This document shows, piece after piece, positions 7,944 through 48,132 of a DNA stretch of 64,000 bases; the first letter of the stretch is position 1, and each line of letters opens with the position of its first letter. This DNA comes from an uncultured Hyphomicrobiales bacterium (GTDB lineage Bacteria > Pseudomonadota > Alphaproteobacteria > Reyranellales > JAQSWP01), in NCBI GenBank assembly GCA_964388115.1, contig CAYLYK010000001.1, forward strand, positions 1,001,205 to 1,065,204, written 5' to 3'. A model generated the notes under the pieces. It ran no database searches, was not told the origin of the DNA, and saw nothing but the letters and a program-made list of their open reading frames with translations. A program made the translations under genes and the position numbers.

Positions 7944-8867
7944 ATGGCCGGTCTTGCCGCAGTGCTGCACAGGGCATGGGACAGCGACGTCGCCTACAGC
8001 TTCCGTAAGTCGCCGGTGGTCGTCGCCGCTGGGATCATGACCTTCCTGCTGTTTATGGCGGCCCTGTTCGCGCCTTTGATCTCGCCGTTCGATCCGCTCG
8101 ATCTCGGCTCCATCGATCTCGTCAACGGCCTGTTGCCGCCGGCCTGGATCGAAGGCGGCAATCCGGACTTTCTGCTGGGCACCGACGAGCAGGGCCGCGA
8201 CATGCTGTCGGCGATTTTCTACGCGCTGCGGATTTCGCTGTTCGTCGGCTTCATCTCGGTCCTACTCGCCATGGTGATCGGCATCACGCTGGGGCTGATC
8301 AGCGGCTATGTCGGCGGCGCGGTCGACGCCGTCATCATGCGCGCGGCCGATGTGCAGCTGACGTTTCCGGCCATCCTGGTGGCGCTGCTGATCAACGGCA
8401 TCGCCCGCGGCATCATCGGCAACGAGCGCTTCGATGAACTGGCTGTGATCGTCGTCATTCTGGCGATCGGCCTGTCGTTCTGGGTGCAGTATGCGCGCAC
8501 AGTGCGCGGTTCGGTGCTGGTCGAGAAGAACAAGGAATACGTGCTGGCCGCCAAGGTAATTGGATTGCATCCGCTGCTGATCCTGTTCCGTCACATCCTC
8601 CCCAACGTCATGGGTCCGGTGCTGGTTATCGCCACGATCAACCTGGCGCTGGCCATTATCACGGAAGCGACGCTCTCATTCCTGGGCGTCGGCCTGCCCG
8701 CCACGCAGCCGTCCCTGGGACGACTGATCGAGGAGGGCAATCGTCTGCTGCAGAGCGGCGAATGGTGGGTGGCGCTGATGCCTTCGATCGCGCTGGTGCT
8801 GCTGGTGCTGTCGGTCAACCTGCTGGGGGATTGGCTGCGTGATGCGCTCAATCCCAAGCTGCGCTAG
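7944..8867 (+). CDS. ABC transporter permease (DppC-like)
   Basis: ATG at 7944 lies 1 nt after the upstream stop and is preceded by GGAGG. The ORF-track start is 7920. Multi-TM permease sequence. Confidence 0.9.
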   Translation: MAGLAAVLHRAWDSDVAYSFRKSPVVVAAGIMTFLLFMAALFAPLISPFDPLDLGSIDLVNGLLPPAWIEGGNPDFLLGTDEQGRDMLSAIFYALRISLFVGFISVLLAMVIGITLGLISGYVGGAVDAVIMRAADVQLTFPAILVALLINGIARGIIGNERFDELAVIVVILAIGLSFWVQYARTVRGSVLVEKNKEYVLAAKVIGLHPLLILFRHILPNVMGPVLVIATINLALAIITEATLSFLGVGLPATQPSLGRLIEEGNRLLQSGEWWVALMPSIALVLLVLSVNLLGDWLRDALNPKLR

Positions 8868-38735: not shown

Positions 38736-39872
38736 ATGCCGTCGTTGCCTCGCTGCCGCCGCTCCTGTCTAATCGGCGCAACAAGCAAGAGGGAGGAAGC
38801 CATTCCCGATACCAATTCCCTGGCTGAACTGCCGCCTGAACAGACGGGGCCCGCGGCATGGTACGGCCCATCGATTGCGGCGCGCGAAGACTACGTCGTG
38901 GCGCTCGACGCCGGCGATATTGCGGAGATCGATGCCGCCATGGCGCCGCTGCTGGTGCGCAACGCCGATATTGCCGCCGTGACGGCGGCCGATTTTCCCT
39001 TGCCGCGCCTTAAGGTCAAGCTCGACGCCACTTTGCGCGAGCTATTGCATGGGCGTGGTTTTGTCGTTTTGCGCGGCCTGCCGGTCGAACGTTATGACCG
39101 TCGCCAATCGGCCCTGGCTTTCTTCGGTCTCGGCACGCATCTGGGCCGGGCGCGTTCGCAGAATGCCAAGGGCCATGTGCTGGGCCATGTCCAGGATCTC
39201 GGGCTGGACGTCAAAGACCCGAATGTCCGCATCTACCAGACTCACGAACGTCAGACTTTCCACACCGATTCCTGCGACATCGTCGGGCTGCTGTGCCTGA
39301 AGACGGCCAAGAGCGGCGGTCTGTCGGCGCTGGTCAGCTCCACCACCATCTTCAACGAGATGCGCCGGCGGCGTCCCGACCTGTTGCGGCTGCTGTTCCA
39401 GCCCATCGCCACGGATCGGCGCGGCGAGGTTCCGGCGGGGATGAAGCCTTATTTCGAGATACCGGTTTTCAACTGGTATCAGGGCTATCTGACGGCCATT
39501 TACCAGCGCCAGTACATCGATTCGGCGCAACGCTTCGCCGATGCGCCGCGCCTGACGCCGCGGCATGTCGAAGCGCTGAACCTGTTCGACTCGCTGGCCA
39601 ACGACCCGGCGCTGAACCTGCACATGGAGTTCCGGCCAGGTGACGTGCAGCTCGTGCATAATCACACGCTGCTGCACGACCGCACCGGTTTCGAGGACTG
39701 GCCGGAGCCGGAGAAGAAGCGCCATCTGCTGCGCCTGTGGCTGGCCGCCGACGGCGCACGGCCGCTCCCACCGGTCTTCGCCCAGCGTTATGGCAAGATA
39801 GATATCGGCGATCGTGGCGGCATCATCCTGCCGTCGACCACGTCGCTGAACGCGCCTCTGGAAGCGGTGTAA
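38736..39872 (+). CDS. TauD/TfdA-family Fe(II)/2-oxoglutarate dioxygenase
   Basis: QTFHTDSCD (HxD), LVHNHTLLHDR (distal His) and RHLLRLW. The start is uncertain: ATG at 38736 is in frame, and there is no Met nearer the conserved core. Confidence 0.8.
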   Translation: MPSLPRCRRSCLIGATSKREEAIPDTNSLAELPPEQTGPAAWYGPSIAAREDYVVALDAGDIAEIDAAMAPLLVRNADIAAVTAADFPLPRLKVKLDATLRELLHGRGFVVLRGLPVERYDRRQSALAFFGLGTHLGRARSQNAKGHVLGHVQDLGLDVKDPNVRIYQTHERQTFHTDSCDIVGLLCLKTAKSGGLSALVSSTTIFNEMRRRRPDLLRLLFQPIATDRRGEVPAGMKPYFEIPVFNWYQGYLTAIYQRQYIDSAQRFADAPRLTPRHVEALNLFDSLANDPALNLHMEFRPGDVQLVHNHTLLHDRTGFEDWPEPEKKRHLLRLWLAADGARPLPPVFAQRYGKIDIGDRGGIILPSTTSLNAPLEAV

Positions 39873-39880
39873 GTTGCGGC

Positions 39881-40903
39881 ATGAACAGTGAAGAGCGTTT
39901 TGCCGGTCTCGACAGCATCAGGGGATTGGCGGCGGTTTGGGTGGCGATAGCCCACGGCGCCTCATTCCCGGCGAGAGAGACGCTGGTCTGGCTAGGTCTC
40001 AACCAATCTCTTTTGCCAAATTCGCTGAATAGCTTTGCCTTCAATAGCACTGCAGCCGTTACGGTCTTCTTCGTCGTCTCTGGCTTCTGCATTCACCGAC
40101 CGTATGTTGACGGACGTTGCCTGCAATTGTTGCCATACCTGACCAGGCGCCTCATACGCGTGGGCGTGCCCATGGTGACGGTGCTTATTTTTGGCTCGTT
40201 CGTCGGCGGCATCATCGAGGGCAAAAGCGCTGCGGTTCTGTGGACGGTTTACTGCGAGCTTGTTTATTACGGCCTTTATCCATTCATCCTGCTGGCGGCT
40301 CGCCGCATTGGAATGATGTCGGTGTTCGGAATTTCCATTGCGTTGTCTCTCGCCGTCATCGTTTTTAATTTCTCCATAACGCACCCAGGTTTTATTCCCG
40401 GTGGGCTGTCATGGGTAGTTTGCCTGCCGTTCTGGTTGACCGGATGCCTGCTGGCGGAGAAATTGAATCTTGGCTCTGGCAACCGTCCGGCGTTTTTGAT
40501 TTGGCTCTGGCGCGGCGGTATATGGGGACTCTCTGTTTTGGCGTTGTGGGGAGTGTTTCATTCGCCGGTTCGAATCGGTTATCCGACGTCCATGCTGGTC
40601 TTTGCTGTTCTCGCCGCGATGTGGCTTGAAAGAGAGTTGGTGCGCTACGCGGTGAAGAAGCCAGTGTGGATTCTCGAACATCTGGGTTCTATTAGCTACT
40701 CGATTTATCTGGTGCACATGATCGCTTTGGGGGCTTTTGTCTCCGTCGATTGGTCGGGCCCTTTCATTGTTGAATGGCTCGCAAAGGTCGCGGCGATTCT
40801 TGGTCTGGGCATGCTTTTCTATGTGCTGGTCGAGCGTCCGTCGCATAACCTGGCACGCTCGCTATCGAACAGGTTTCGCGCGATGCACTCAGTGTCTGCT
40901 TAG
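39881..40903 (+). CDS. Acyltransferase family 3 membrane protein
   Basis: FAGLDSIRGLAAVWVAIAHG...FFVVSGFCIHRPY with about 10 TM segments. Visibly AT-richer than flanking genes. Confidence 0.8.
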   Translation: MNSEERFAGLDSIRGLAAVWVAIAHGASFPARETLVWLGLNQSLLPNSLNSFAFNSTAAVTVFFVVSGFCIHRPYVDGRCLQLLPYLTRRLIRVGVPMVTVLIFGSFVGGIIEGKSAAVLWTVYCELVYYGLYPFILLAARRIGMMSVFGISIALSLAVIVFNFSITHPGFIPGGLSWVVCLPFWLTGCLLAEKLNLGSGNRPAFLIWLWRGGIWGLSVLALWGVFHSPVRIGYPTSMLVFAVLAAMWLERELVRYAVKKPVWILEHLGSISYSIYLVHMIALGAFVSVDWSGPFIVEWLAKVAAILGLGMLFYVLVERPSHNLARSLSNRFRAMHSVSA

Positions 40904-40916
40904 CAATTCCCGTCCA

Positions 40917-43900
40917 TCAGTGGAAGTCGCGCGACTTGATGCGGATACGCACGTCGCGCGGATGAACATTTGTGCGGGCGCGGGCGACGCGAACGTCGCC
41001 CTGATTGGGATGCTTGACCTCGTCGCCGCGGCCGTATTCGGGGATGATGATGTCGCGCGTACGGGTTGGCAGGACGTCGTTGGCCAAGGTGTCGAGCATC
41101 CAGGAAAGATCGATCAGCTTCTCCGCCACGACATGCACCACCAGCCCTTCGCGCTGCAGCTTTCCTTCCACCCGCATCATCCGCGCGCCCATCACGATCC
41201 GCCGATACTGCTCGAAGATCGCCGGCCAGACGATGATGTTGGCGACTCCGAATTCGTCCTCCATGGTGATGAACACCGTGCCGTTGGCGCTGCCCGGACG
41301 CTGGCGCACCAGAACCAGTCCGGCCACGGCAATGGCGCTGCCGGCCTTGATGTCGTCCAGCCTGTCGTTGGCGCTGATGCCGGTTGGCCGCAACTGCTGG
41401 CGTAGCAGCAAAAGCGGATGGGAGCGCAACGACAGGCGCAGGCTGGTGTAATCGTCCACCACATGCTCGCCGATGGCCATTTCCGGCAATTCCACTTCGG
41501 GTTCCGCCTGTATCGGCAACTCGGTCCGCAGTGCGGGCGTTTCGAACAGCGTCATGCGCTCGTCGCGCAATCCACGTACGGCCCACAGCGCCTGCCGACG
41601 GTCCAGTCCCATCGACTGGAAAGCATCGGCCCGCGCCATCTTTTCCAGCGCCTGCCGCGATAACCCGCTGCGCTGACGGAGATCCTGCATGTTGCGATAG
41701 CCATCGCCGCGGTGCTGGATCATCCGTTCGATGGCTTTCTCCTCGCCCCCGGTCACCTGGCGGAATCCCAGGCGCAAGGCGCAAAGCTGCGTGGTGCGGC
41801 CATTGGGGGCGGAAGGCGCGAGCAGGGCGCGGGGAGTCGGGGCCGGCTCCAGAGTGCAGTCCCAGTGGCTATGGTTCACGTCTGGTGGCAGCACTTCCAC
41901 GCCGTGCTCGCGCGCATCCCGCACGATCTGTCCCGGCGCGTAGAAGCCCATCGGTTGCGCGTTGAGCAGGGCGGCGGCGAAGACGTCGGGGTAATGGCAC
42001 TTGATCCATGACGAGACGTAGACCAGCAGCGCGAACGAAGCGGCATGGCTTTCGGGAAAGCCGTAATTGCCGAAGCCCTTGATTTGCTCGAAACATCTTT
42101 CGGCGAACGTCTTTTCGTAGCCATTGGCGATCATGCCGTCGATGAACTTCCTCTCGAAGCTGCCGATGGTGCCGGTCTGCTTGAACGTCGCCATGGCGCG
42201 GCGCAAGCCATCGGCTTCCGTTGGGGTGAAACCGGCGGCGACGATAGCAATCTTCATCGCTTGTTCCTGGAACAGCGGCACGCCCATGGTCCTTTCCAGC
42301 ACGGCACGGAGTTCCGGCTTGGGAAACTCGATGCGCTCCAGATTGTGCCGCCGGCGCAGATAGGGATGCACCATGTCGCCCTGGATCGGGCCGGGTCGCA
42401 CGATGGCTACTTCGACGACCAGGTCGTAGTAATTCTTCGGCTCCAGGCGCGGCAGCATCGACATCTGCGCCCGACTTTCGACCTGAAACACGCCCAGCGA
42501 ATCGGCTCGCGACAGCATTTCGTAGGTTGCGACATCGCCTTCGGGGATATGGAGATCGAGATCCCGGCCGTGATGCTGCTTGGCTAGGGCGAAACTCTTG
42601 CGCAGGCAGGTCAGCATCCCAAGCGCCAGCACGTCGACTTTCAGGATCTTCAGCGCGTCGAGATCGTCCTTGTCCCACTCGATGACGGTGCGATCTTCCA
42701 TCGCCGCATTGGCGATGGGCACCAGATCGTCGAGCCGGTTGCGGCAAATGACGAAACCGCCAACATGCTGCGACAGGTGGCGCGGAAAGCCGGTCAGGAT
42801 TGCCGACAGCTCAAGCGCCAGCGACAGACGCCGGTCGGTGGGATCCAGCCCGGCCTCGCGCACGTGCTCTTCGGGAATGGGTTCTCCTGAGGAGCCCCAA
42901 ACCGAATCAGCCAATGCGCCAACCGTGTCCGGCGATAGTCCCAGCACCTTGCCAACATCGCGAATGGCGCTGCGGCTGCGATAGGCGATCACTGTTGCGG
43001 TGAGGGCGGTATGGTCACGACCATATTCTTTATAGATGTGCTGGATGACCTCTTCGCGGCGCTCGTGCTCGAAATCGACGTCTATGTCGGGCGGCTCGTT
43101 GCGGGCGGTGCTGAGAAAACGCTCGAACAGCAGATCGATGCGGTCGGGACCGACGGCGGTAATGCCAAGGCAGTAGCACACCAGCGAATTCGCCGCCGAG
43201 CCGCGCCCCTGGAATAGAATTTCCTTTTTCCGAGCGAAGTCAACGATGTGGCGAACGGTAAGGAAGAAGGCCGCGTAATTGCGTTCCCGAATCAGATTGA
43301 ATTCGTTCTCGATCTGCTTTCTGTATTTTTCAATGGTGTTGCCGGGAAAGCGCTTCGCCGCTCCCTCCCAGGTCAGCCGTTCCAGTTCTTGCTGCGGCGA
43401 TCGACCGTCAATGCCGGCCTCAACCGGATACTGATAGTCCAGCTCCGTCATCGCGAAATTGCAGCGCTCGGCAATTTCCACGGTGCGCGCCAAGGCGTCG
43501 GAATGACGGTGGAACAGCCGTGCCATCTCTTCCGGCGATTTCAGGTGCCGCTCGGCATTGGCATGTAAACGCCAGCCGGCTTCGTCGATGGTGCAGCGCT
43601 CGCGGATGCAGCTCAGCACGTCCTGCAGGATGCGTCGCTCCGGCGCGTGGTAATGCACGTCGTTGGTGGCGACCAGCGGCACATTGCAGCGATGACCGAG
43701 TTGCTTCAGCTGCTCCAAGCGTCTTGCATCGTCGCCGCGATAGAGATGGTGGCCGGCAAGATGGCAGCGGCCGCGGAAGACATCGGCGCAATCGGCCAGG
43801 CGGCGGACGAATTCCTCGTCCGGATCTTCCGGCGGCACCACGATGGTCAGGATGTTTTCGGCGTGGGCGAAGATGTCGTTAAGGAAGAGATGGCACTGGC

Positions 43901-44237
43901 CTTTGGGCGCGCGCCGATTTCCCAAGGTCAGCAACCGGCAAAGCTTGCTGTAGCCCTTGATGTCCATCGGGTAGGCCAGCAGCGAGAAACCATCCTGCGT
44001 CACCAGCCGGCTACCGATCAGTAGCTTGATATCCTTACCGGCCTTCTTCGCCTCGTGCGCGGCCACATGCGCGCGCACGACGCCGCCCAATGTGTTGCGG
44101 TCGGTGACGGCGATGGCTCGATGGCCCAAGGCTGCCGCCGTCTCGACCAGTTCGGCAGGACGCGAGCCGCCGCGCAGGAAGCTGTAATTGGACGTGACTT
44201 GCAGCTCGGCATAGGCCGGCTCTGGCACCGCACGCAT
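40917..44237 (-). CDS. dnaE2: Error-prone DNA polymerase III alpha-like subunit DnaE2
   Basis: 1106 aa. N-terminal PHP domain (YAELQVTSNYSFLRGGS) and PolIIIA core. Sits downstream of imuA and imuB. Confidence 0.95.
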   Translation of the reverse strand: MRAVPEPAYAELQVTSNYSFLRGGSRPAELVETAAALGHRAIAVTDRNTLGGVVRAHVAAHEAKKAGKDIKLLIGSRLVTQDGFSLLAYPMDIKGYSKLCRLLTLGNRRAPKGQCHLFLNDIFAHAENILTIVVPPEDPDEEFVRRLADCADVFRGRCHLAGHHLYRGDDARRLEQLKQLGHRCNVPLVATNDVHYHAPERRILQDVLSCIRERCTIDEAGWRLHANAERHLKSPEEMARLFHRHSDALARTVEIAERCNFAMTELDYQYPVEAGIDGRSPQQELERLTWEGAAKRFPGNTIEKYRKQIENEFNLIRERNYAAFFLTVRHIVDFARKKEILFQGRGSAANSLVCYCLGITAVGPDRIDLLFERFLSTARNEPPDIDVDFEHERREEVIQHIYKEYGRDHTALTATVIAYRSRSAIRDVGKVLGLSPDTVGALADSVWGSSGEPIPEEHVREAGLDPTDRRLSLALELSAILTGFPRHLSQHVGGFVICRNRLDDLVPIANAAMEDRTVIEWDKDDLDALKILKVDVLALGMLTCLRKSFALAKQHHGRDLDLHIPEGDVATYEMLSRADSLGVFQVESRAQMSMLPRLEPKNYYDLVVEVAIVRPGPIQGDMVHPYLRRRHNLERIEFPKPELRAVLERTMGVPLFQEQAMKIAIVAAGFTPTEADGLRRAMATFKQTGTIGSFERKFIDGMIANGYEKTFAERCFEQIKGFGNYGFPESHAASFALLVYVSSWIKCHYPDVFAAALLNAQPMGFYAPGQIVRDAREHGVEVLPPDVNHSHWDCTLEPAPTPRALLAPSAPNGRTTQLCALRLGFRQVTGGEEKAIERMIQHRGDGYRNMQDLRQRSGLSRQALEKMARADAFQSMGLDRRQALWAVRGLRDERMTLFETPALRTELPIQAEPEVELPEMAIGEHVVDDYTSLRLSLRSHPLLLLRQQLRPTGISANDRLDDIKAGSAIAVAGLVLVRQRPGSANGTVFITMEDEFGVANIIVWPAIFEQYRRIVMGARMMRVEGKLQREGLVVHVVAEKLIDLSWMLDTLANDVLPTRTRDIIIPEYGRGDEVKHPNQGDVRVARARTNVHPRDVRIRIKSRDFH

Positions 44238-44240
44238 GGC

Positions 44241-44669
44241 TCAGGCCGCAAGCGCAGGCAGGGCGGAAAGATGCAGGATGGGGGAGGCCAGGAAATCGGC
44301 ATTCACCGTCGCCAGATCGCGATCGGCGGTGACCAGCGCCGCTTTCAGCGTCTCGGCGCAGGCCAAATAGAAGCAGCTCGCGATCGGCCGGTCGAGCTTG
44401 AGGCTGAGTTGTAAGGCGCGCTCGTGCAGATCCTGCACCGGGTGCAGGCGTTCAAAGAAAGCCGGCGCTCGATGCAAGGCTTCCTGCATCTGCTCCAGCG
44501 TGACCTCGTCACGCTGCAGTTTGAGACGAGCGATTTCGCTCATCTGCATCAGGATCAACTCTGGCGCGTGCAATGCCAGTCGAGAATCGATCAGGCGCAA
44601 CGCCACCGACCGCAAAGGTTCGTTGACGAACCATTTGACGGCGACGGTGGCGTCGACGACGTAAATCAT
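44241..44669 (-). CDS. vapC: PIN-domain toxin (VapC-like)
   Basis: MIYVVDATVAVKWFVNEPL...APELILMQMSE...LVTADRDLA. ATGA overlap with the upstream antitoxin. The stop is 3 nt before the dnaE2 ATG. Confidence 0.85.
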   Translation of the reverse strand: MIYVVDATVAVKWFVNEPLRSVALRLIDSRLALHAPELILMQMSEIARLKLQRDEVTLEQMQEALHRAPAFFERLHPVQDLHERALQLSLKLDRPIASCFYLACAETLKAALVTADRDLATVNADFLASPILHLSALPALAA

Positions 44670-44902
44670 CGACTGCGATTCTCCGTCAGCAGCAATGCGC
44701 TATCGGTCTGCGGCCGGTCCTTGGGCGTCAGCGCAGCGATGTCATTGGCCAGCGCGATCAGTTTATGCGCCGAGGGCGTTTGCGCGTGCCGCTCCATCAA
44801 GGCCCGGACCTCGCCCTCGAGCGAGCGGTTATTGGCTTTCGCCAGCAATTTCAACGCCTGCACGACGTCAGTGCCGAGATTGCGGATGGTCAGAGTAGCC
44901 AT
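44666..44902 (-). CDS. vapB: Ribbon-helix-helix antitoxin (FitA/VapB-like), 78 aa
   Basis: MATLTIRNLGTDVVQALKLLAKANNRSLEGEVRALM is the classic Arc/FitA RHH N-terminus. The ATG at 44902 is preceded by GGGGAAG. The ORF-track start at 45136 overlaps imuB and is rejected. Confidence 0.8.
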   Translation of the reverse strand: MATLTIRNLGTDVVQALKLLAKANNRSLEGEVRALMERHAQTPSAHKLIALANDIAALTPKDRPQTDSALLLTENRSR

Positions 44903-44918
44903 GTCTTCCCCATTCGGT

Positions 44919-46568
44919 TCAGGCGCAAAATCCATGCAGATACCAGCGCGCGGTGCGCATCGTGCCGGCGGCGCCGACCACGCTGTTGAACGGTCCGTCG
45001 CGATAGATCCAGTAGCGCTGCCCGTCTTCGGCTTCGATGCGGTAGTAATCGCGCACTGGCGGGATCGCGTGCAGGAGATTGGCTGCCGTCGCGTCCGCTT
45101 CGCGCCACCATTCGTTGGCCAGCCGTTCCGGCCCATCGACGCGCACCACGCGATGCGCCTGCTGGCGCCAGCGGAACTGCATCGGCGGATCGTCAGGCAC
45201 GGGTGCGGTGACGTCTATCGGCTCGGGGTTAGCGAGAAGTCGCACCGGCCGCACCGGCGCCGCCCGGGCAGGGTCGGGCCTGGCGAAGACGCGCCAATCC
45301 TGCGCCAGCGCCACCGCCGAGCGGGCAGCCCCAGCGCTCCCCGTCACAGGAGCGCTCGCCGAGACGCGCTGCACGGCGCGTTCGGGGATGTGGCTCTGGC
45401 GCGGAATCAGCCGGATGACGCGATCGGAGCCCAGCTTGGCTGTCAGTCGGTCGATCAATTCGTCGACCTTGCCGTCCTCGCTGCCTTCGCCTTGCTCGAG
45501 ACTTTTCTGCCGGCCAACGAAAGGATCGGCCGCGCGCGCGGTCAGCAGCATCAGCTCGACGCCAAAGCCGGCATCGATCTGGCCCAGCGGTTCGGCGAAC
45601 AGACGCAGCAGATGGTCGGCGTCGCGGCTCGGCTGGCTGGTGCCGATCTCGCAGCGCTCGAACGAGCCATCGACGCGATAGAGCACCAGCTCGATCTGCC
45701 GCGCGCCCATGCCGGCCGCCTCAAGCTGGCTGCCCAGGGAAGCCAGCAGGCGGGAAGTGGCGGCAGCAATATCCTCCGGCCGGCCGATCGGCTCGGCGAA
45801 GGCCAGGCGGCAGCGGAAAGGCGGCGTGGGACGGCGCGGCTCGATGGTCTCGGGAATTCTTCCCAGCGCTTGATCGAGCCGCGCCAAAGCGATCGGACCG
45901 AACCGGTTGGTCAGGGGCGCGCGCGGCAGGGAATAGAGATCGCCGATGCGGCGCAGGCCCAGACGGTTCAGCGTATCGATGGCCTCAGCAGGCAGGCGCA
46001 GGGCCTCGACCTGCAACTCCGCCAGAGCCTGGCGCTGGCCACCAGGCGGCAGGATGCGCTGGGCGCGGGTGCCGGTGCCGAAATGCGCCATGGCCCAGGC
46101 TGCGCCCGCGGTGTCGGCCAGCCCGGCGCGGCAGGTGAAGCCCAGCTTCTCGACGCGCTGCATCAAATCCTTGAGCAGCTCCGCTTCGCCCTTGTCGCCG
46201 CCGCCGAAGAGATGGGCGCAGCCGCTGATGTCGAGGAACAGCCCGTAGCCCGCCTGGTCGGGCATGTCGTCGAGTGCCACCCAGGGTGTATAGCGGTCGC
46301 ACCAGGCGGCGAGCTTCTCCAGCAGCCGCTTGTCGGCGCCGATGTCCTCGGCCACGACGCGCAGCTCGGGCAGCATGGCCCGTGCGTCGGCCAGCTTCAG
46401 CTGGCGATAGAGGCCGGCGCGCTGCGCTGCCTCATTGACGGAAGCCAGGCGCTGCCCGCCGGAAACGCTGGCCAGAGTCGCTCCAGGGCGCTCGCGCCAC
46501 TGGGGATCGAGGCGGGCCAGCCGGTCGGTCGACAGCCTGGGAAACCAAAGCGAAATCACCCTTTTCAT
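44919..46568 (-). CDS. imuB: ImuB, Y-family-polymerase-like mutasome subunit
   Basis: MKRVISLWFPRLSTDRLAR is the typical ImuB N-terminus. 549 aa. Position between imuA and dnaE2. Confidence 0.9.
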   Translation of the reverse strand: MKRVISLWFPRLSTDRLARLDPQWRERPGATLASVSGGQRLASVNEAAQRAGLYRQLKLADARAMLPELRVVAEDIGADKRLLEKLAAWCDRYTPWVALDDMPDQAGYGLFLDISGCAHLFGGGDKGEAELLKDLMQRVEKLGFTCRAGLADTAGAAWAMAHFGTGTRAQRILPPGGQRQALAELQVEALRLPAEAIDTLNRLGLRRIGDLYSLPRAPLTNRFGPIALARLDQALGRIPETIEPRRPTPPFRCRLAFAEPIGRPEDIAAATSRLLASLGSQLEAAGMGARQIELVLYRVDGSFERCEIGTSQPSRDADHLLRLFAEPLGQIDAGFGVELMLLTARAADPFVGRQKSLEQGEGSEDGKVDELIDRLTAKLGSDRVIRLIPRQSHIPERAVQRVSASAPVTGSAGAARSAVALAQDWRVFARPDPARAAPVRPVRLLANPEPIDVTAPVPDDPPMQFRWRQQAHRVVRVDGPERLANEWWREADATAANLLHAIPPVRDYYRIEAEDGQRYWIYRDGPFNSVVGAAGTMRTARWYLHGFCA

Positions 46569-47277
46569 GGCACCACTCCATCATCCAGCTTCGTTCTTGA
46601 TCGTCGATCCGGCCGCGCGCGCGGCGCAGGCTGACCCGCAAACGGGGTCGGGCAATGTCATGCAATCCGGGGGTCGAGGCGGCGGCGGCCGAACTGACCT
46701 GCCAGCGCGTCAGCGCCGCACTGGTGCGCAAGGCGCCGGGCAGGCGCAGCAGCAGGGCCGGCGTGGCGCTGGCTTCGGCCGCCAGTTGCAGCCGCCGCGT
46801 CGCCGTCAGATCGGCCGTGCGGATCTCGCCCAGCACCGCGGCCAGCACGCCCGACCGCAGCCCTTCCTCGATGGTCCACAGAACGTGGTCCTCGCTCTCC
46901 GGCTCGATCAGCAGCAGGCGGGAAGGATCGAAATAGGGTAGGAGGCCCGGGGCGTAGGGACGGGAGTCGAAGCGGCCGCCACGGCGGCGGACCCAGAGAA
47001 CGGGCCGGTCCTGCCGGCGCTCGGTGCCACACCGGCCCAGCAACCAGGCGGCAAAGCCGGTAGCGGCGGCAGTCGGCGTTGTTTCATAAGGGCTTACGCC
47101 TTCGATTTCATGCAAACCGCGAACCGACAAGCCGCCTTCAGGCAAGACCTGATCGATTGCCGCCACGCCCAAGGCCACAGCGTCCGACTTGCTGGAAAAA
47201 GACACGCTAAATCGCTGTTCAAGAACATTTATTTGTTCTCGAAGTCTGGCAATATCGGACAAGGATGCAGCGTGCAT
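46432..47277 (-). CDS. imuA: ImuA, RecA/SulA-like mutasome subunit
   Basis: LGVAAIDQVLPEGGLSVRGLHEIEG...VLWV... pattern. First gene behind the LexA box. The annotated stop gives a 137-nt overlap with imuB. Confidence 0.85.
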   Translation of the reverse strand: MHAASLSDIARLREQINVLEQRFSVSFSSKSDAVALGVAAIDQVLPEGGLSVRGLHEIEGVSPYETTPTAAATGFAAWLLGRCGTERRQDRPVLWVRRRGGRFDSRPYAPGLLPYFDPSRLLLIEPESEDHVLWTIEEGLRSGVLAAVLGEIRTADLTATRRLQLAAEASATPALLLRLPGALRTSAALTRWQVSSAAAASTPGLHDIARPRLRVSLRRARGRIDDQERSWMMEWCHEKGDFALVSQAVDRPAGPPRSPVARAPWSDSGQRFRRAAPGFRQ

Positions 47278-47314
47278 GGTCTCGATCCGGCGGTTTGGCG
47301 GAAAGCCGATAAAT

Positions 47315-47329
47315 GTTCTTGTTTTGTTC
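47315..47329. promoter_or_regulatory. Alphaproteobacterial LexA (SOS) box GTTC-N7-GTTC
   Basis: GTTCTTGTTTTGTTC read directly. It starts 38 nt upstream of the imuA ATG (47277), in the divergent intergenic region. Confidence 0.7.
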
Positions 47330-47364
47330 TAGTCCTGTCCGGGCACAGAGTCAAACCGATTCCG

Positions 47365-47440
47365 GCCAGCGTTTTGCTGGCGCTTCTGCTCGCCAAGACG
47401 CCCCGACATTCTGCTTGTTTGAGCCCCAGCGTTCCGCTGG
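47365..47440. repeat. Two copies of a hairpin-forming palindrome CCAGCGTTYYGCTGG about 60 nt apart
   Basis: GCCAGCgttttGCTGGC at 47365-47381 and CCAGCgttccGCTGG at 47426-47440, both read directly. Confidence 0.4.
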
Positions 47441-47466
47441 CTAGGCTGCATCTGGCATCAGGGAGA

Positions 47467-48132
47467 ATGGCAATGCCCGACGATCTCGCCCCCAATCTCA
47501 AGCCAAGCGGCGCCGATCTGCCGCTTTTGCCTGAGGTGACGCTGAAACTGGTCGAGGCGACGGCTGAAACCTTGAAGGGCTATGGCGAGTTGGTCGATCA
47601 CAAGGACCAACGGCCGGTCGAGATCGTGCGCTGGCCGGCGCTGGGTCGTCGGCCCGTCGATCCCGGCACCGGCGACCAGGGCGGCACCACGGAAGGCATC
47701 TTCGAATTCGAATGGGCGGGCGATGTGCTGCGCGGCCGCAACAATGCGGTCGACGACGATTACGTGCTGGGCTTCGCCTGCCAGCCGCAGAAATCGAGCG
47801 AAGCCAAAGCCACGGTGAAGCGCGACAAGGTCCTGCTGTGGCACGCCAACTACCATCCCGATGGCGGCCAGGTGTTCTTCCCTCTGACGCCTGCACCTTT
47901 CGTCGTGCCCCTGGCGCTGCCGGGCGATGAAGTGAGGCCGGAAGATTTCGTCGCCTTCTGGTTCAAGGGCGACAAGGGCCTCTACATCCACCCAGGCATC
48001 TGGCACGAGGGCGTGTTCCCCACCGCCGATCGCGGCCGCTTCTTCGATCGCCAGGGCAAGGTGCATGCCCGCATCAGCGTCGATTTTCCGCGCGAGTTCG
48101 GCTGCTATCTTGCGGCGCCCCTGACACGGTAA
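47467..48132 (+). CDS. Ureidoglycolate lyase (AllA)-family protein
   Basis: YHPDGGQVFFPL...FVVPLALPGD...FVAFWFKGDKGLYIHPGIWHEGVF aligns by eye with E. coli AllA (HPLGTQAFIPM...FVVVVALGDD...NVWHHPLF). Start at 47467 or 47473. Confidence 0.65.
   Translation: MAMPDDLAPNLKPSGADLPLLPEVTLKLVEATAETLKGYGELVDHKDQRPVEIVRWPALGRRPVDPGTGDQGGTTEGIFEFEWAGDVLRGRNNAVDDDYVLGFACQPQKSSEAKATVKRDKVLLWHANYHPDGGQVFFPLTPAPFVVPLALPGDEVRPEDFVAFWFKGDKGLYIHPGIWHEGVFPTADRGRFFDRQGKVHARISVDFPREFGCYLAAPLTR

Follow-up and report, generated by a model that had tools for sequence, protein, structure and literature searches.

The ImuA-ImuB-DnaE2 proteins are the main damage-induced mutagenesis machine in bacteria where DNA polymerase V (Pol V) is absent, and they drive drug-resistance mutations. 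To our knowledge, the limits on DnaE2 output are still poorly understood. In alphaproteobacteria, imuABC has been described as an uninterrupted operon (PMC3901139), and the SOS box of Caulobacter is GTTCN7GTTC (PMC9578287). Here we describe a cassette of this kind in a 64,000-nucleotide stretch of contig CAYLYK010000001.1 from an uncultured Hyphomicrobiales bacterium (the window, whose first nucleotide is position 1), in which a ribbon-helix-helix (RHH) antitoxin-type gene and a PIN-domain gene lie between imuB and dnaE2. The explanation that we favour, and that we hold to be about evenly poised between right and wrong, is that the pair is an old, operon-resident RHH-PIN module of the FitAB/VapBC type, co-transcribed under LexA and partly domesticated in the window, where it would serve as a regulatory complex and as a lock on the cassette, not as a classical damage-triggered RNase.

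Several described systems bear on this arrangement. In Escherichia coli, dinB-yafN-yafO-yafP places an SOS-regulated type II toxin-antitoxin pair in the operon of a translesion polymerase (Singletary et al. 2009, as cited in PMC9578287), and the precedent that the original prediction for this locus had named is therefore real. The same source gives Caulobacter HigBA as a LexA-regulated toxin-antitoxin (Kirkpatrick et al. 2016). An 80-amino-acid open reading frame (ORF) between imuY and dnaE2 of Deinococcus has proved to be a split-off ImuB-C subunit, and so a true part of the mutasome (PMC8072749). FitAB assembles as a tetramer of heterodimers that binds an operator upstream of its genes (PMC3920265). 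Finally, a 2026 survey of more than 3000 genomes sorted DnaE2/PolY modules into 11 types, none with an RHH or PIN partner (PMC12926913). Full-text searches, with most subscription papers beyond reach, returned no description of an RHH-PIN pair in an imuB-dnaE2 cassette, in line with the earlier statement that the arrangement had not been described for ImuABC/DnaE2 cassettes. The cassette and the RHH-PIN class are already known; what is new is their combination, in which a deeply conserved pair derived from a toxin-antitoxin system resides in an SOS mutagenesis cassette.

The cassette is read from the minus strand, and the order, coordinates and spacings that had been predicted were all reproduced from the ORF list and the sequence, the gene identities being borne out by profile scans and, for imuA, mainly by position and identity. 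Its features are as follows.

47349-47354, minus strand: −35-like hexamer TTGACT of the predicted imuA promoter, from its conservation upstream of imuA
47331-47326, minus strand: −10-like TAGAAC overlapping the LexA-type box, read from the sequence
47329-47315, minus strand: LexA-type box, GAAC-N7-GAAC, GAACAAAACAAGAAC, read from the sequence
47277-46432, minus strand: imuA, 281 amino acids, from its position, its overlap with imuB and its identity to annotated ImuA
46568-44919, minus strand: imuB, 549 amino acids, an inactive Y-family polymerase homologue with an ImuB-C/DUF6504 domain, from Pfam
44911-44905, minus strand: Shine-Dalgarno-like GGGGAAG inside the 16-nucleotide (nt) imuB-RHH spacer, read from the sequence
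44902-44666, minus strand: RHH antitoxin-type gene, FitA-like, 78 amino acids, from PF22513
44669-44241, minus strand: PIN-domain gene with a VapC/FitB-type fold, 142 amino acids, from PF01850 and an AlphaFold model
44237-40917, minus strand: dnaE2, error-prone Pol III alpha paralogue, 1106 amino acids, from NF004225

On the minus strand, 16 nt separate the imuB stop codon from the RHH ATG, a 4-nt ATGA overlap joins the RHH and PIN ORFs, and the PIN stop codon is followed after 3 nt by the ATG of dnaE2. The distance from imuB to dnaE2 is thus 679 nt with two genes, and the three core genes do not form an uninterrupted operon. The dnaE2 product scored 1410 bits against the NCBIfam profile NF004225 ‘error-prone DNA polymerase’ (cut-off 939) and is full length, with PHP, DNA_pol3_alpha, finger, HHH_6 and OB domains all found by profile scan. 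ImuB matched the Pfam families IMS (34 bits), IMS_C (24.8 bits) and DUF6504 (28 bits) and has more than 3000 homologues, many of which carry the name ImuB. The RHH protein scored 48.7 bits against PF22513 FitA-like_RHH (cut-off 27) and the PIN protein 41.5 bits against PF01850 (cut-off 23.6). For the imuA product there was no Pfam match, and its 57 bits against NCBIfam ImuA_translesion fall under the cut-off of 150, so its identification leans chiefly on its position and on the 30-35% identity that it shows to genes annotated as ImuA or ‘damage-inducible’ in canonical cassettes. The genes imuA and imuB share 137 nt (46432-46568), read in different frames; overlaps of 80-137 nt also occur in canonical cassettes (L034, L036; loci are numbered throughout with the prefix L), and a long overlap would seem to be typical of the cassette family. 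In public gene calls the RHH gene begins at another in-frame ATG, that at 44935, which gives 89 amino acids and an overlap with imuB; from the N-termini of homologues and the GGGGAAG site, we favour the ATG at 44902. PADLOC models gave no defence-system match for RHH, PIN or ImuA.

Upstream of imuA, the GAAC-N7-GAAC box is the reverse complement of the Caulobacter GTTCN7GTTC and is found in all fetched loci that include the upstream region, except L091. The sequence TTGACT-N17-TAGAAC is likewise kept upstream of imuA in nearly all cassette loci, whether the pair is present or not, and would be the imuA promoter, with the LexA box over its −10. The LexA-type box of the original prediction is thus there, at the predicted −10 and conserved in relatives, LexA binding being predicted. 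Consensus scans of 40500-47700 found neither a sigma-70-like promoter nor an intergenic terminator, and the 16-nt spacer upstream of the antitoxin gene in the window has neither a promoter-like site nor a palindromic operator dyad of its own. On the spacings and the scan together, the view that the genes leave no room for a separate promoter or terminator holds in the window.

The five-gene order is widely conserved. PIN homologues were found at 59-89% identity to the window PIN, and the six that were looked up (89%, 86% and four at 65-68%) all stand in the order imuA-imuB-RHH-PIN-dnaE2, their longer contigs sharing an M20 peptidase and a DUF427 gene on one side and TauD on the other. Across relatives with PIN 36-89% identical the pair is syntenic, and it also accompanies ImuB homologues sampled at 63%, 61% and 53% identity, the last of these in a Reyranella sp. 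assembly; the nearest named relatives are Reyranellaceae and Reyranella metagenome-assembled genomes (MAGs). A PIN relative is present in 16 species-representative genomes, and 10 of the 16 hold it exactly between imuB and dnaE2, a placement that is far beyond chance. In these ten, ImuB is about 37-44% and DnaE2 about 50-62% identical to the window proteins; one is Rhodovibrio sodomensis DSM 9895, and the others are MAGs, either Rhodospirillaceae-like or from other alphaproteobacteria. With the window and one remnant included, the distinct pair-bearing sequences that we collected come to 24 (the 23 others are L017, L018, L022, L026-L028, L031, L032, L037, L083, L001-L004, L006-L010, L045, L091, L100 and the decayed L016). 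The survey of the imuB-dnaE2 junction that had been proposed with the original prediction thus found the pair to recur, and the case named there as refuting it, a strain-specific recent insertion, is ruled out by synteny, by conservation and by a GC content at third codon positions equal to that of dnaE2 (77.2 for RHH, 76.2 for PIN, 77.5 for dnaE2), so that composition shows no sign that the pair arrived recently.

In an unbiased sample, the pair is nonetheless a minority occupant of this junction. An ImuB profile run against metagenomes recovered 80 loci whose ImuB is 36-53% identical to that of the window, 69 of them with an informative junction: imuB abuts dnaE2 in 50, the RHH and PIN pair intervenes in 5, and 14 have other inserts or gaps. 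The cassettes of Geminicoccaceae and Rhizobium etli plasmids, taken as annotated controls, are canonical with a 4-nt imuB/dnaE2 overlap, and an unannotated Indioceanicola plasmid has a direct imuB/dnaE2 junction by tblastn. A plasmid origin of the arrangement was considered and rejected, as blastn and tblastn found no pair-bearing cassette in 72,556 plasmids, where the only PIN relatives are at most 40% identical and stand alone. Among pair-bearing loci, the 4-nt RHH/PIN overlap is kept in nearly all, and, L027 and L010 apart, PIN either overlaps dnaE2 by 4 nt or ends 2-11 nt before it. L010 has a 28-nt PIN/dnaE2 overlap by automatic start call. L027, a Reyranella sp. assembly, has a gap of 395 nt (8392-8788) made of three tandem GC-rich repeats of about 125 nt that look like repetitive extragenic palindromes or miniature inverted-repeat transposable elements.

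Two architectures can be told apart among these loci. In Group I (L001-L004, L006-L010, L045, L091, L100), the imuB-RHH spacer is 55-82 nt long and mostly AT-rich, and it typically carries two TGCTAGCA-AAA-TGCTAGCA dyads about 9 nt apart that end just before the ribosome-binding site; the PIN proteins of this group have a complete D-E-D-D tetrad. Free-standing relatives have the same type of box upstream of their RHH gene, which on sequence grounds makes it the probable operator of the RHH-PIN family. The FitA half-site, TGCTATCA, resembles the Group I and free-standing boxes. In Group II (the window, L017-L028, L031, L032, L037, L083), the spacer is 0-36 nt without dyad boxes and the PIN tetrad is variably broken, positions 42, 45 and 98 being those that vary. 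The N-terminal DNA-reading strand of the RHH protein, TIRNL, is identical in both groups. Two Group I loci (L001:6001-6816 and L091:5275-6081) have a PIN ORF of about 270 amino acids that extends into a C-terminal DUF3775 before dnaE2.

The comparison of the two groups bears on how the pair is expressed. It had been proposed that the pair depends on the SOS promoter; for the window this probably holds, as no internal signals were found, but it is not a general property, since distant relatives keep their operator-bearing spacers. The dependence predicted here is a derived feature of the window lineage and not of the arrangement itself. It would be quite improbable, in our judgement, that the window pair is instead autonomous, autoregulated from a hidden promoter in the 3′ end of imuB, with SOS read-through incidental. 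Such a reading can draw on the operators of the Group I spacers and on a sigma-70-like match (TTGCAA-17-TATGAT, L007) in one of the three that were scanned. In the window, however, it meets a 16-nt spacer, the lack of any promoter-like site in 40500-47700, and an imuB 3′ end in which no operator-like dyad was found and the best weight-matrix scores are weak.

The PIN protein of the window retains its fold while departing from the canonical active site. Its AlphaFold model is confident (predicted local distance difference test 93.2, predicted template modelling score 0.88), and Foldseek matched the model to PAE0151 (E 1e-6), Mycobacterium tuberculosis VapC26 and VapC20, and FitB; the best solved relative of the RHH protein is FitA (2bsq/2h1o, E=0.013). 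The PIN length is exactly 142 amino acids in 15 of 16 close clusters, and many positions are invariant among 30 PIN sequences. Aligned to the Group I homologues and PAE0151, the active site of the window PIN reads D6-Q42-S98-D116, with Gln in place of Glu and Ser in place of Asp at two of the four positions of the D-E-D-D tetrad. The closest relatives have S, T, D, E, I, V, G, A or P at position 98 and Q, E or D at position 42; position 45 is Glu in most sequences where 42 or 98 vary and Asn in Group I. Given the Q42 and S98 substitutions, RNA cleavage and toxicity of the window copy cannot be assumed. The earlier description of the gene as a PIN toxin therefore stands for the fold and for the overlapping RHH partner gene upstream, but two of four catalytic acids are missing from this copy.

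These residues weigh on the main reading of the original prediction, that of an active, damage-inducible toxin-antitoxin, in which LexA cleavage would induce the operon, the RHH protein would be degraded faster than its partner, and free PIN protein would cleave tRNA, rRNA or mRNA, halting growth during error-prone synthesis by ImuA-ImuB-DnaE2. The operon anatomy and the LexA box fit it, as do the VapC-like fold, the full tetrad of Group I relatives, a possible compensation by Glu45, and the precedents of dinB-yafNOP and the LexA-regulated HigBA of Caulobacter (PMC9578287). We still think it unlikely for the window, where Gln42 and Ser98 replace two canonical acids and position 98 is unconstrained in the nearest relatives. 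The pair is also dispensable in a close relative, L038 (below), and the Group I copies have operators of their own, so that SOS coupling was not the ancestral logic.

Both genes are under purifying selection in the range of imuA and imuB. Nei-Gojobori estimates of the ratio of nonsynonymous to synonymous substitution rates (dN/dS) inside the subclade of the window were 0.09-0.38 for PIN and 0.04-0.30 for RHH, against 0.21-0.42 for imuA, 0.06-0.35 for imuB and 0.09-0.24 for dnaE2, so neither RHH nor PIN is a pseudogene. Pairwise distances of RHH and PIN correlate with those of ImuA, ImuB and DnaE2 (r 0.60-0.81; 0.76 for ImuB versus DnaE2), a co-divergence that bears on the question, raised with the original prediction, of whether the pair co-evolves with imuB and dnaE2. 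Under a neutral-relic account, the ORFs would have no protein-level function and persist as a ribosome path to dnaE2 or because deletion is rare. The eroded catalytic residues, the decayed and frame-shifted remnant in Rhodovibrio sodomensis, the loss in L038 and a junction that accepts many unrelated inserts are what such an account would lead one to expect. The dN/dS values of both genes, the invariant PIN positions, the conserved TIRNL strand and the constant PIN length speak against it, and we regard it as having only a slim chance of being right.

The history of the pair, as far as trees recover it, includes both persistence and loss. In a neighbour-joining tree, the cassette PINs cluster with one free-standing sequence nested among them, and the plasmid and toxin-antitoxin-island copies fall outside. 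The ImuB neighbour-joining tree places pair-bearing cassettes in at least five groups interleaved with contiguous ones, with deep nodes unresolved; a single clade of pair-bearing cassettes was thus considered and found unsupported, only local relationships having bootstrap support. One such relationship, from ImuB and DnaE2 concatenated, makes L038, which has a canonical ATGA junction, the sister of pair-bearing L027 with 100% bootstrap within the Group II clade, and from this nesting the pair was most simply lost in L038. In the same analysis, pair-bearing L002 has as its sister L040, whose junction holds an IS200/RAYT-like gene. The remnant in Rhodovibrio sodomensis DSM 9895 (L016:5796-6326) comprises the N-terminal half of RHH and a PIN without its first ~32 residues, and so without Asp6, in different frames.

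Other genes occupy the same junction elsewhere, and relatives of the pair occur elsewhere in genomes. At the imuB/dnaE2 junction we found a GIY-YIG gene, two IS200/RAYT-like genes (Y1 transposase), a DUF559 endonuclease-like gene, a glyoxalase/VOC gene and a gene for a protein of about 80 amino acids (metagenome loci L039, L040, L051, L071, L101 and L109; L035 is a Lichenicola cladoniae plasmid). The ~80-amino-acid protein is common to L109 and the Lichenicola cladoniae plasmid, on which an IS21 element also splits imuB. Outside such cassettes, ‘Rhizobium rhizosphaerae’ MKIO01000024.1 (L119:4756-5450) has an RHH-PIN pair between sdhA and sdhB, its PIN 40% identical, that lies 2 nt from sdhB with a GC-rich hairpin upstream in place of operator boxes; a 40%-identical pair adjoins repABC on a Paracoccus plasmid, and a further relative is located in a toxin-antitoxin island. 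These copies indicate that the subfamily behaves as ordinary mobile toxin-antitoxin modules able to wedge into operons.

Such relatives bear on whether the RHH-PIN pair, or PIN alone, could be a mutasome accessory that partners ImuA-ImuB-DnaE2, processing nucleic-acid structures at lesions or binding ImuB or DnaE2. A position held across deep divergence, co-divergence with the cassette proteins and the Deinococcus subunit (PMC8072749) would suit such a role, and in two cassettes the fusion of PIN to DUF3775 hints at further functions. Yet the closest non-cassette relatives belong to toxin-antitoxin pairs of the ordinary kind, on plasmids or within toxin-antitoxin islands, the same subfamily sits inside an sdh operon, most cassettes do without the pair (contiguous in 50 of 69), L038 has lost it, and the 2026 survey of mutasome modules names no such partner (PMC12926913). 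We therefore give this role little credence. The original prediction had left a choice between damage-inducible toxin coupling and an addiction module. The loss in L038 and the unrelated selfish genes at the junction favour the addiction or hitch-hiker alternative rather than a system dedicated to coupling growth arrest with mutagenesis, and hitch-hiking together with repeated loss lowers the probability of a dedicated role in mutagenesis.

For the window, the loss of the operator spacer, an incomplete active site and constrained proteins together favour a partly domesticated module. We suggest that an RHH-PIN module settled long ago between imuB and dnaE2 in an alphaproteobacterial cassette and then travelled with it. 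Group I would represent the ancestral-looking form, with its own operator dyads, a full tetrad and dnaE2 translationally coupled to PIN. With the spacer gone in the window lineage, transcripts from the LexA-boxed imuA promoter would most probably carry RHH, PIN and dnaE2 together, and ribosomes would arrive at dnaE2 through the PIN ORF. The pair, its nuclease activity probably lost, may then act mainly as an RHH2-PIN2-type DNA-binding or regulatory complex, and may also be a ‘lock’ on the cassette that is hard to delete.

A regulatory complex of this kind would need a binding site, and one candidate lies beside the imuA promoter. The whole 64-kb window was scanned with a weight matrix built solely from the Group I spacer dyads, and the top score, 15.2, fell on the following site.

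47364-47382, minus strand: candidate RHH operator dyad CGCCAGCAAAACGCTGGCC, 9 nt upstream of the −35, from the weight matrix

The homologous site ranks first in L022 and second in L017, and in L017 the dyad arms covary (CCGGC/GCCGG). In a more speculative extension, which we think rather doubtful, RHH-PIN would be a second, LexA-independent layer of control on DnaE2: the Group I spacer would be a dnaE2 promoter autoregulated by the toxin-antitoxin or a roadblock to read-through from imuAB, and in the window lineage the site of the RHH protein, with PIN as its co-repressor, would have moved beside the imuA −35. If so, DnaE2 output would be gated by LexA and DNA damage and also by whichever state of proteolysis or translation is sensed by toxin-antitoxin complexes.

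Several observations weigh against a domesticated, operon-dependent regulatory pair. The dyad score lies within the maxima of shuffled sequences (mean 13.8, max 18.3) and the dyad is missing in L018, L026, L027 and L028, for which reasons a move of the operator to the imuA promoter is kept only as a lead. A consensus scan could overlook a weak promoter within the 3′ coding region of imuB. Every PIN copy retains at least three acidic residues, with Glu45 in most of the variable ones, and the active site may have been rewired, with Glu45 compensating, and not be dead. Purifying selection on PIN argues for some function and does not specify which. Finally, as the ImuB tree does not unite the pair-bearing cassettes, a single capture is not demonstrated.

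A second element near the start of the operon stands out by its conservation at the nucleotide level.

47218-47243, minus strand: hairpin or palindrome with a 10-bp stem, TTCGAGAACA-AATAAA-TGTTCTTGAA, in imuA codons ~12-21, from nucleotide-level conservation

It contains GAAC...GTTC and is present only in the window, L017-L023, L026 and L028, no other examined cassette having it. RNAalifold on six Group II sequences held all 10 hairpin pairs, one of these being compensatory and several G.U wobbles, and the element could act as RNA or as a site where a protein binds. Rfam gave no known RNA family in 40500-47800. On the other side of the cassette, a 388-amino-acid membrane-protein-like ORF on the plus strand (39737-40903) lies between dnaE2 and a TauD-like gene; the syntenic L018-L020 lack it and L017 carries a GNAT acetyltransferase in its place, so the flank just downstream of dnaE2 is variable.

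A pair that persists through such deep divergence may be an unusually clear case of a selfish module that has locked itself into the operon of its host, or it may add a layer of regulation, so far unrecognised, to an error-prone polymerase. Comparison material is at hand in the two architectures, one with an operator and an intact active site and the other with no operator and an eroded site. For annotation, the label ‘VapC family toxin’ may mislead on function in the Reyranellaceae-like lineage.

Set beside the known systems, the window shares with canonical imuA-imuB-dnaE2 (Caulobacter crescentus, Sinorhizobium, Rhizobium plasmids) imuB, dnaE2 and a probable imuA in one order, a long overlap of the first two genes and a GTTC-N7-GTTC-type box over the −10 (PMC9578287, PMC3901139). 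It differs at the junction: canonical cassettes (L034, L036, L038) have a 4-nt overlap of the imuB stop with the dnaE2 start, and the window has two genes there. The Deinococcus operon likewise has a small ORF, long annotated as hypothetical, between a Y-family homologue and dnaE2 under SOS control, but that ORF is an ImuB C-terminal domain, unrelated to RHH or PIN. Among toxin-antitoxin systems, FitAB of Neisseria gonorrhoeae (2bsq, 2h1o, 2h1c) is close in kind, FitA being the best solved RHH relative and FitB among the structural matches of the PIN model. The similarity is weak (RHH at E=0.013, PIN at 16% identity in the structural alignment), and FitAB is free-standing and autoregulated, whereas the window pair lacks an operator spacer and has only part of the acidic tetrad.

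Caulobacter HigBA (as cited in PMC9578287) is also an alphaproteobacterial toxin-antitoxin under SOS control that modulates growth after DNA damage, but it stands at a separate locus with its own LexA-controlled promoter, has a RelE/HigB-type toxin and is unlinked to a polymerase operon. The likeness to dinB-yafNOP is that a type II pair is co-oriented with a LexA-controlled error-prone polymerase gene, co-transcription being what we infer for the window. There, the E. coli pair lies downstream of the polymerase gene, whereas the window pair lies upstream and dnaE2 would be coupled to the toxin ORF; the partners are YafN/YafO with Pol IV in the one and RHH/PIN with ImuABC/DnaE2 in the other. 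A pair of the window type, unlike that of E. coli, is kept across several alphaproteobacterial lineages in two regulatory architectures.

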